From assembly GCA_050872585.1 (NCBI GenBank), contig JBNMHE010000001.1:1-42114 (forward strand): DNA of 42,114 nucleotides, given 5' to 3'. This document shows positions 6,308 to 7,449 of the stretch, piece by piece. The translations under genes and the position numbers were made by a program. Position 1 is the stretch's first letter. Every line of letters begins with the position of its first letter. This stretch comes from Rhodocyclales bacterium. GTDB lineage: Bacteria > Pseudomonadota > Gammaproteobacteria > Burkholderiales > Rhodocyclaceae. The notes under the pieces are model-generated. The model saw only the letters and a program-made list of their open reading frames with translations, was not told the origin of the DNA and did no database searches.

Positions 6308-6371
6308 TTTTTTACCTAACCCATTGATTTTTAAAGGAAAACAAAATAAAATGAAGACGCAAATTAAAAAT

Positions 6372-6427
6372 AATCAATCAATCAATCAATCAATCAATCA
6401 ATCAATCAATCAATCAATCAATCAATC
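6372..6427 (+). repeat. tetranucleotide simple sequence repeat (AATC)14, equivalent to (CAAT)n
   Basis: 14 perfect units were counted directly. The tract lies between ATG 6351 and the GT2 catalytic domain. Confidence 0.98.
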
Positions 6428-6441
6428 CAGCCGAGCCGCTT

Positions 6442-7449
6442 TTGAGCATCATTGTGCCGGTTTACAATGTTGAAAAATATTTGCCTGAAACCATCCAAAG
6501 CGTCCTTTGCCAACATTTTGAACATTACGAAGCCATTTTTGTCAATGATGCTTCCACCGATTCTTGTCCTTCTCTTCTCAACAAAACGCAACAAGAACAT
6601 CCGCACAAAATCAAAGTCATTCATTTAAAAGAAAATCGCGGAACACATTACGCGCGAAAAATCGGCGTGCAGCACGCCACTGGAAAATTCATCAGCTTTT
6701 TGGATGGCGATGATACTTTCTTGCCCCATGCTTTTGAAACCATGGCTTGCGAAATGCACAAAAATCCAGCAGATATTTTGCGGTTTGATGTGGCATTTTG
6801 CGATTTGTCTTCCAACATTCTTTCCCGCAAAACCGGCTTTGAAGAATGGTTTAATCCAAGTTTTGCACCCGTTTTCGGTCATCAACAAGTTTTGGCGCAT
6901 CTTTTTTTAAAGAAAAATGCCGCACACAATGTTTTTGCCGCGCTTTATCCTGCCGCGTTAATTCAAAAAACTTTTGAACATTTAAGCAATGCATGGATTG
7001 TTTCTTGCGAAGACCAATACACCACGCTGATTTTGGCGCATTTTGCCCAAAGTTTGCGCCAAGTGAATGTGCCCGTTTATGTTTATCGTTTGGGTTCAGG
7101 CGTTTCGTTTAACCAAATGGATTTAAACAAAGCCGCACTTTTGTTGTTGTCTTTTTTGAATATTGAAAAAGGTTTAAAAAATTTTCCACTGCATGCCAGC
7201 GTGCAACATTACGCCCAAAATTTTCCCAAAGAGCGCGCCAATGGCGTTGCAAAAGCCTATTTGAATGCGTGGGAAAACATGGTGCATGGCGTTTTTGAAA
7301 ACGAACAACAAGCACATTTTGCGCTTTATCACGCATCTTTGCGCGCCATTCCAATGAGCCGCGCAGAAAAATTAGGCAAATTTTTGTTGTTCCCTTTTTA
7401 TTGGCTTCAAAAAATCTTTCAAAAATTGAAAAACAATAAAAACAATTAA
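6442..7449 (+). CDS. family 2 glycosyltransferase, putatively phase-variable
   Basis: 335-aa ORF beginning SIIVPVYNVEKYL...VNDASTD...FLDGDD, a GT2 signature. The TTG at 6442 is only the first in-frame start after a stop. The upstream ATG at 6351 with an AAGGA Shine-Dalgarno sequence is one frame off at 14 repeat units. Confidence 0.8.
   Translation: MSIIVPVYNVEKYLPETIQSVLCQHFEHYEAIFVNDASTDSCPSLLNKTQQEHPHKIKVIHLKENRGTHYARKIGVQHATGKFISFLDGDDTFLPHAFETMACEMHKNPADILRFDVAFCDLSSNILSRKTGFEEWFNPSFAPVFGHQQVLAHLFLKKNAAHNVFAALYPAALIQKTFEHLSNAWIVSCEDQYTTLILAHFAQSLRQVNVPVYVYRLGSGVSFNQMDLNKAALLLLSFLNIEKGLKNFPLHASVQHYAQNFPKERANGVAKAYLNAWENMVHGVFENEQQAHFALYHASLRAIPMSRAEKLGKFLLFPFYWLQKIFQKLKNNKNN

Follow-up and report, generated by a model that had tools for sequence, protein, structure and literature searches.

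A putative tetranucleotide phase-variation switch on a GT2 glycosyltransferase gene in an uncultured gut lineage of Rhodocyclales

In a 42,114-nucleotide stretch of a Rhodocyclales bacterium (positions 1 to 42,114 of contig JBNMHE010000001.1, assembly GCA_050872585.1; hereafter "the window"), 14 perfect copies of the tetranucleotide AATC lie between an ATG codon and the body of a glycosyltransferase family 2 (GT2) gene. We propose, with good confidence, that this (AATC)n tract is a slippage-driven translational switch that turns the GT2 gene on and off by phase variation. At the level of sequence, the locus carries the marks of a contingency locus: the type and position of the tract, the logic of its reading frames, and a polymorphism among samples that extends to all frames. 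An earlier note on this DNA had proposed a phase-variation switch, and that proposal is supported by the frame arithmetic, by natural alleles that are in and out of frame, and by a repeat tract in a second gene family. The mechanism of such a switch is already known from the lic loci of Haemophilus influenzae. The host, however, is unusual, and the enzyme lies outside the lic families.

The repeat tract, its reading frames and the encoded enzyme

The elements of the locus, listed in order along the window, are the following.

6334-6338, forward strand: AAGGA, candidate Shine-Dalgarno (SD) sequence, read from the sequence, with a 12-nt spacer to ATG 6351
6351-6371, forward strand: ATG and leader codons (MKTQIKN), identical in the related contigs L001, L002, L085 to L088 and L101 to L103
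6372-6427, forward strand: (AATC)14, that is, slippage-prone 5'-CAAT repeats, reading as NQSI repeats in the ON frame
6428-6441, forward strand: linker CAGCCGAGCCGCTT, reading P-A-E-P-L in the ON frame
6442-6445, forward strand: TTGA, in which TTG is the first canonical start of the GT2 frame and TGA (6443-6445) ends the ATG frame when the unit number n is 0 mod 3
6442-7449, forward strand: body of the GT2 glycosyltransferase of the GT-A type, with DGDD at 6703-6714 and the stop codon TAA at 7447-7449
6471-6473, forward strand: TGA that ends the 40-codon ATG frame at the present 14 units

The position of the tract after ATG 6351, with AAGGA 12 nt upstream, was as first described: both the sequence itself and Tandem Repeats Finder (period 4, 14.0 copies, 100% matches, score 112) confirmed 14 units at 6372-6427. 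In the CAAT register, the identical 56 nucleotides read AAT-(CAAT)13-C. The tract is the sole repeat in the window with a unit of 2 to 8 nt and more than four copies, and the chance expectation for such a perfect tract in 42 kb is about 2e-26. It begins 21 nt past ATG 6351, inside the 5' coding region, and its unit length is not divisible by 3. The SD sequences at other genes of the window are of the AGGAG, GGAGG or AAGGA type. A computation of DNA folding gave no secondary structure for the tract as a single strand, and hairpin-mediated instability of the tract was therefore rejected.

The frame of ATG 6351 encodes MKTQIKNN(QSIN)n and stops at TGA 6471-6473. The GT2 open reading frame (ORF; 6442-7449, 335 codons, closed upstream by TGA 6352-6354) is one base out of register with it. 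When the locus was rebuilt in silico with 0 to 20 units, ATG 6351 was joined to the full enzyme only at n = 1 mod 3 (1, 4, 7, 10, 13, 16 and 19 units), which yields proteins of 348 to 372 amino acids (aa), and the remaining frames stopped after 12 to 48 codons. The rebuild agrees exactly with the earlier statement that 14 units are out of frame and that 13 or 16 units restore the frame. It had also been claimed that the catalytic ORF has only a TTG with no evident SD sequence, and inspection of the sequence indeed found nothing SD-like ahead of either TTG 6442 or GTG 6454. The next Met codon of the GT2 frame lies about 100 residues into the enzyme.

On these grounds, translation of the GT2 gene would start at ATG 6351 and the ribosome would read through the (AATC)n tract, in which slipped-strand mispairing during replication would gain or lose 4-nt units. 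At n = 1 mod 3, the ATG would be joined to the enzyme (ON), and the product would carry an N-terminal (NQSI)n extension that is hydrophilic and probably dispensable. At the 14 units of the window, ribosomes would pass TTG 6442 and GTG 6454, the only alternative starts, and stop at TGA 6471 (OFF). The loss of one unit (13) or the gain of two (16) would then turn the gene ON, and populations would become mixtures of cells that differ in a surface epitope. We infer that such switching is rapid and reversible within a clone. By analogy with H. influenzae, in which tetranucleotide tracts change at about 1e-4 per generation (PMC2651432), the 14-unit tract should be highly mutable. Its length falls within the range of 5 to 51 units of the H. 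influenzae CAAT loci lic1A, lic2A and lic3A/B (PMC2651432).

As judged from the full set of invariant GT2 residues and a confident structural model, the predicted enzyme is intact. Pfam returned GT2-type families only (PF00535, PF10111 and PF13641), and the match to PF00535 scored 115.4 bits against a cut-off of 23.3 (E = 3e-33). In a 52-sequence alignment, residues D41, D93, D95, D96 and D196 are invariant, and three of the five (D93, D95 and D96) belong to the DGDD motif, a DxD motif of the type that binds metal and nucleotide sugar in inverting GT2 enzymes of the GT-A fold. The AlphaFold2 model (predicted local distance difference test [pLDDT] of 88.1, predicted template modeling score [pTM] of 0.84) assigns residues 6-12, counted in the translation from 6427, to strand beta1. 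The gene-caller product, P0001 (331 aa), starts from GTG 6454, and a GTG start would remove most of this strand. Foldseek matched the protein to GT-A structures at E values of 1e-17 to 1e-13, with 5hea (GalT1/CgT), TarS, TarP and RmlT at the top. Matches to solved structures also include K4CP, and the top matches in NCBIfam, the PDB and Foldseek are GT2 enzymes such as TuaG, GalT1, TarS and TarP. None of the NCBIfam equivalogs reaches its cut-off, all of them falling far below, and the fold matches are generic to GT-A. Given these two results, assignment to a specific sugar or acceptor was dropped. For the C-terminal half, neither the protein search nor Foldseek found a characterized relative. 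The acceptor is probably a surface glycan, be it lipooligosaccharide (LOS) or lipopolysaccharide (LPS), capsule or a glycoprotein, to which the enzyme would add one sugar.

Natural alleles and a second family with a pentanucleotide repeat

Protein search (with P0002 as the match), a scan with the leader pattern and a cluster look-up identified alleles of the same locus in a sister lineage, all from gut metagenome assemblies. This set comprises nine loci on seven or eight separate metagenome contigs and, with the window locus, makes up family A. P0002 is almost identical to the window protein over its first ~111 residues and differs from it in the C-terminal half. The family A contigs have an identical leader, ATGAAGACGCAAATTAAAAAT, and an identical right flank, CAGCCGAGCCGCTTTTGAGC, and they vary in unit number (3, 3, 4, 4, 4, 5, 6 and 6, versus 14 in the window), as listed here.

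L001 and L002: 3 units, out of frame
L085/L086 (one contig), L087 and L088: 4 units, in frame
L101: 5 units, out of frame
L102 and L103: 6 units, out of frame

The 4-unit alleles, found on three contigs, encode P0121, a protein of 357 aa that starts with MKTQIKNNQSINPAEPLLSIIVPVYNV, and the other family A alleles were called from an internal GTG. We infer that tracts of 3 to 6 units are not collapse artifacts of k-mer assemblers with k of at least 21. Sequencing run ERR866580 yielded 4 units in its ENA assembly (L088) and 6 units in its Logan assembly (L102), which is suggestive only as a sign of length change within a clonal population.

A second group of homologues, family B (the cluster of P0003, 18 members), comes from a third related lineage and is 43% identical to the window enzyme. 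Its gene adjoins a FliI-like type III secretion system ATPase gene and a T2SSF/PilC-like gene. Directly after the ATG, at a position equivalent to that of the window tract, family B carries a pentanucleotide tract, (AACGC)a(AACTC)b. In the contigs that were fetched, the unit totals are 2, 4, 4, 5, 6, 7, 7, 7, 7, 12, 12, 14 and 19, so that all three frames are represented. Only totals of n = 2 mod 3 put the gene in frame (L003, L097 and L098), with N-termini that range from MNSTPPPRLSVV up to MNATQRNATQLNSTQLNSTQLNSTPPRLSVV. The earlier note had called for repeat numbers to be compared across isolates; in public assemblies they proved heterogeneous, with 3 to 6 units in the sister-lineage contigs and 2 to 19 in family B.

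Two further observations concern the family B alleles. In L089 to L100, the tract is compound, with the AACGC units first and the AACTC units after them (for example, L094 2906-2985 and L097 3004-3073). In the same alleles, a CCG run after the tract varies by one unit (PPP versus PP), which stacks slippage-prone elements at one N-terminus. On one 135-kb family B contig, the gene is ON at the repeat (5 units) and is split by a mid-gene frameshift into pieces of 212 aa and 154 aa (P0126 and P0128). This split gene is either a pseudogene or a sequencing error.

A repeat-free homologue, P0004, is 41% identical to the window enzyme and has its ATG 8 codons ahead of IIPVYN (MNPTPILSVIIPVYN). Because this ATG is at the equivalent position, an upstream start appears to be the norm of the family. 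The linker of the window gene is Pro-rich, like PPPRL of family B and PTPIL of the repeat-free homologue, and the N-terminal peptide is alike across the tetranucleotide, pentanucleotide and repeat-free proteins (MN.TP..LS, P.EPLLS). Three relatives thus share a short, translated, Pro-containing N-terminus before beta1, and two of them carry an independent frame-shifting repeat in it. In our view, no other observation argues as strongly for ATG 6351 as the true start and for the tract as a switch under selection rather than an accident.

The distribution of alleles over the three frames also bears on a proposal that extends the on/off switch without excluding it. Under this proposal, the switch has three levels: full expression at n = 1 mod 3, none at n = 2 mod 3 (the state of the window), and low-level enzyme at n = 0 mod 3, where TGA 6443-6445 overlaps TTG 6442 and would permit reinitiation. 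The TTGA overlap is found in family A, the same geometry recurs in family B (stop offset +1 from TTG), the repeat-free homologue has TTATCC at the TTGA site, and a TTG start would retain the whole GT-A domain. A 2007 paper by Dixon et al., to go by its title, reportedly describes differential expression of lic2A from alternative initiation codons (cited in PMC3938747). However, TTG-AGC simply encodes a conserved Leu-Ser, and TTG seems, by eye, to be a common Leu codon here. Nor is there an excess of n = 0 alleles: family A has a ratio of about 4 : 4 : 2 for n = 0, 1 and 2 mod 3, and the family B contigs that were fetched divide into 3 ON, 3 with the TGA overlap and 7 in the third frame. We consider a third level of expression unlikely.

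The upstream region, the host and the mosaic structure of the locus

Three additional features surround the GT2 gene.

6251-6313, forward strand: hairpin 3' of the pgsA stop, formed by an inverted pair of the 12-mer TCCACGGTCAAC with an 18-bp stem, then T6
6317-6787, forward strand: shared module that comprises the leader, the repeat and GT2 residues to ~115, delimited by sliding identity against L085 and by blastn
7474-7485, forward strand: another 12-mer TCCACGGTCAAC, immediately 3' of the GT2 gene

The hairpin (RNA fold of -24.8 kcal/mol, z = -5.95) looks like a terminator, and 37 nt are left between its end and ATG 6351. An Rfam scan of 6150-6600 returned sub-threshold microRNA-hairpin noise on the hairpin only and no riboswitch or leader family.

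Several observations weigh against the interpretation of the tract as a switch. No promoter was found between the end of the hairpin (6313) and ATG 6351. The sole promoter-like match on the forward strand (TTGATT 6324, TAAAAT ending at 6352) would place the start of transcription past the ATG, and the 12-nt spacing between AAGGA and the ATG is long. Translation from TTG 6442 would still preserve the Pfam domain and strand beta1 in full. The tracts of the sister lineage are short (3 to 6 units), which points to slippage over evolutionary time and not necessarily to rapid switching. The two alleles of run ERR866580 (L088 and L102) differ at 3/1118 bases in their flanks and may represent co-resident strains rather than clonal variants. 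Finally, the 14-unit window allele is a single observation (a singleton in the full-length protein search), and the C-terminal half of the window protein has no close relative in the protein database.

The first of these observations raise the question of whether the tract is translated as part of the enzyme gene at all. If it belonged instead to a decoy upstream ORF or to an untranslated 5' leader, TTG 6442 would serve as the start of the enzyme at any tract length, and there would be no ON/OFF switch, or only an effect of tract length on transcription or mRNA stability. The promoter-like pair at 6324-6352, the terminator-like hairpin so close to the ATG and the complete domain obtained from TTG 6442 would all fit this explanation, and action of simple sequence repeats (SSRs) via the 5' untranslated region is known in H. 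influenzae (PMC12721329). Yet the promoter-like matches in the region are not above the shuffled expectation (5 found versus 4.2 expected), and TTG 6442 is without an SD sequence. In addition, natural in-frame fusions are present in both gene families, the homologues resemble one another in the protein sequence of the N-terminal peptide, and an extended -10-like element in the sister lineage, TGTTAGAAT, is situated upstream of the shared leader, where it would put the ATG inside the mRNA. An untranslated or decoy tract therefore seems to us very improbable, and we retain the translational switch.

The element TGTTAGAAT occurs ~60 nt before the shared ATG in the sister lineage (L085 3240-3275 and L002 30-65). 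The window and L001 have a hairpin in its place, so that what drives the module may vary with its context. The exact leader pattern has no match in the GTDB species-representative genomes.

The bacterium that carries the locus belongs to a gut-associated lineage. Window positions 138-6254 are 98.2% identical to L005, a metagenome-assembled genome (MAG) from Hadza gut samples that is the GTDB representative named "uncultured Rhodocyclaceae bacterium." For UvrC, the next-best match is only 49% identical, which indicates a deep, uncultured lineage without a close cultured relative. The locus occurs in sequencing runs of gut and manure metagenomes, mostly human-derived ones, and runs X1 to X4 contain 75-79% of its 31-mers. 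The organism had been described as flagellated, a description for which the sole backing comes from chemotaxis genes in the window. An exact-sequence look-up of the neighboring SodB found no other strain of the window locus on record, and nothing relevant to this lineage, or to tetranucleotide switches among Betaproteobacteria, came up in the literature search.

Synteny with L005 (98.2% over 6.1 kb) ends at window position 6254 (L005 position 12482), right past the pgsA stop. In L005, there is no GT2 gene after pgsA, other genes occupy this place, and the next 9 kb match nothing in the window. The window GT2 gene stands alone between pgsA and a pyridine-nucleotide oxidoreductase gene. Either the DNA has truly been rearranged, or has gained an insertion, at the hairpin where collinearity breaks, or one of the two assemblies contains a chimeric join.

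The absence of the gene from the species-representative MAG, together with the split P0126/P0128 gene in family B, could be taken to mean that the 14-unit OFF allele is a silenced relic in this strain. Alternatively, it could be the assembler's pick from a mixed population, since the window is a metagenome-assembled contig and assemblers report one length per polymorphic tract. In either case, the OFF phase, which is an assembly consensus and may conceal a mixture, would tell little about the organism. Against an artifact, typical reads and the large k-mers of assembly are longer than the 56-nt tract, so that a molecule with 14 units must have existed. Against a relic, the tract is perfect and shows no decay, and the 335-codon ORF is uninterrupted and retains every catalytic residue. 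A mixed population, moreover, is a prediction of the switch hypothesis itself. We judge it quite unlikely that either a relic or an assembler's choice accounts for the observed state.

Apart from the repeat, the module from 6317 to ~6787 is 97-100% identical to the sister-lineage contigs, and identity drops to a background of ~50% on both sides. The sole comparable housekeeping gene that is shared, encoding a SpoU-type methylase, is ~72% identical between L085 and L005. The left junction of the module, TAACCCATTG, is the same in three upstream contexts (the window, L001, and L002/L085), and the DNA of the C-terminal, acceptor-side halves shows no relationship. From these sequence comparisons, the switch and the donor-binding half behave as a sharply bounded module, about 98% identical between lineages, that is joined to different acceptor-side halves.

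The 12-mer TCCACGGTCAAC is present in 31-32 copies in the 42 kb of the window, mostly at gene ends. Six inverted pairs of it form terminator-like hairpins (for example, 6258+/6297-, 8654+/8702-, 27943+/27983- and 41958+/41997-). Its density resembles that of a DNA-uptake sequence (DUS), and to our knowledge it corresponds to no published dialect of DUS or uptake signal sequence (USS). Motifs related to the 12-mer are also seen in the sister-lineage contigs (CCACGGTAAAC in L003). The mosaicism of the module and the uptake-like 12-mer, taken together, suggest exchange by transformation and recombination. In its fullest form, this idea holds that competent gut bacteria exchange the contingency module as a finished unit through transformation, that recombination attaches it to different acceptor domains, that the tetranucleotide and pentanucleotide units arose independently at the same codon position, and that a third level of expression via TTGA reinitiation is possible. 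We offer this fuller scenario tentatively, as one that we are more inclined to doubt than to accept.

Other repeat loci of the window, known systems and significance

Other SSRs and glycan-related genes are present elsewhere in the window. A C14 run at 27106-27119 (G14 on the coding strand) is located just past the catalytic domain of a CmcI/rhamnosyl O-methyltransferase-like gene on the minus strand (27023-27871). Changes in the length of this run would give C-terminal tails that end at 255, 271 or 282 aa. The present frame alone ends in overlap with the start of the next gene, a radical S-adenosylmethionine (radical-SAM) gene (25993-27039), which is followed by a gene for a 1258-aa protein with an N-terminal GT2 domain. 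We regard the C14 locus as a second candidate phase-variable glycan locus. At the contig end (42044-42114), an ORF that opens at ATG 42044 (MFSNVKNKKQPFNKTFNASR) with a good SD sequence (AGGA, 7-nt spacer) enters a G11 run. This ORF looks like a third SSR-bearing 5' coding end, and the G11 homopolymer probably broke the assembly there. A G9 run (31446-31454) lies in frame, reading GGG, inside a major facilitator superfamily (MFS) transporter gene (30541-31779). The gene of an Eco57I-type N6-adenine DNA methyltransferase (10605-11777) has 27% G+C versus 42% for the window and is probably foreign DNA. A tetratricopeptide repeat (TPR) protein (13526-15574) has a C-terminal GT41 (O-GlcNAc-transferase-like) domain. 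With this protein and a block of GT2, radical-SAM, methyltransferase and glmS genes at 22-28 kb, the contig is rich in glycan-modifying genes.

Among known systems, the closest resemblance is to lic2A of H. influenzae, an LOS galactosyltransferase gene with the same tetranucleotide at its 5' coding end, just past the initiation codon(s), and the same ON/OFF control by frameshift. Lic2A is assigned to CAZy family GT25, and its gene has several ATGs in two frames, whereas the window gene has a single ATG. There is no sequence relationship between the two, as the window protein matches GT2 Pfam models only. The hosts differ as well, lic2A being from a respiratory species of Pasteurellaceae and the window gene from an uncultured gut lineage. 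The peptides encoded by CAAT repeats in H. influenzae, that of Lic2A included, are hydrophilic and uncharged, and the lic2A tract has 5-25 units across strains (PMC2651432; PMC3938747). Work cited there is reported to show that the lic2A repeats are required for phase variation and not for LPS synthesis (PMC2651432; PMC3938747). The same repeat unit and the same translational mechanism are found in lic1A (choline kinase) and lic3A/lic3B (sialyltransferases), which encode other enzymes, not GT2. These genes are part of a multi-locus contingency set, and their host is naturally competent and has uptake sequences (PMC3938747). The comparison with lic1A, lic2A and lic3A made in the earlier note thus holds for the mechanism and fails for the gene family, with which there is no sequence homology.

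In H. influenzae biogroup aegyptius, a GT8 gene has a strain-specific 5'-CAAT tract, and its homologues in other strains are repeat-free (PMC2651432). The latter are paralleled here by P0004, although the enzyme is GT8 rather than GT2 and the organism is a different one. The window locus further resembles systems of Neisseria and Campylobacter in that intragenic SSRs act on glycosyltransferase genes. Neisseria lgtA and lgtD, and the glycosyltransferase genes for LOS, capsule and flagellar glycans of Campylobacter jejuni, contain intragenic homopolymeric G/C tracts (reviewed in PMC11868660), and some of them, lgtA and lgtD included, encode GT2 enzymes. Campylobacter is also a motile gut organism, and the window has homopolymeric runs of its own (C14, G9 and G11). 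The tracts of these systems are mononucleotide runs, in contrast to the tetra- and pentanucleotide repeats described here.

Nearly all documented cases of multi-locus SSR phase variation come from cultured pathogens and from commensals closely related to them, and a recent review asks whether this restriction is real or a database bias (PMC11868660). For the locus described here, a tetranucleotide switch on a probable surface-glycan enzyme is well supported, it has a pentanucleotide sibling, and the host lineage is an uncultured one of the human gut; the evidence came from public metagenome assemblies alone. The locus also carries a warning that gene callers systematically mis-start or truncate such genes, as they did here for most alleles, which were called from an internal GTG. 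If the switch is real, gut commensals outside Bacteroides and Campylobacter would also bet-hedge their surface glycans by repeat slippage, with consequences for the interpretation of phage receptors, antibody targets and strain-level variation in metagenomes.

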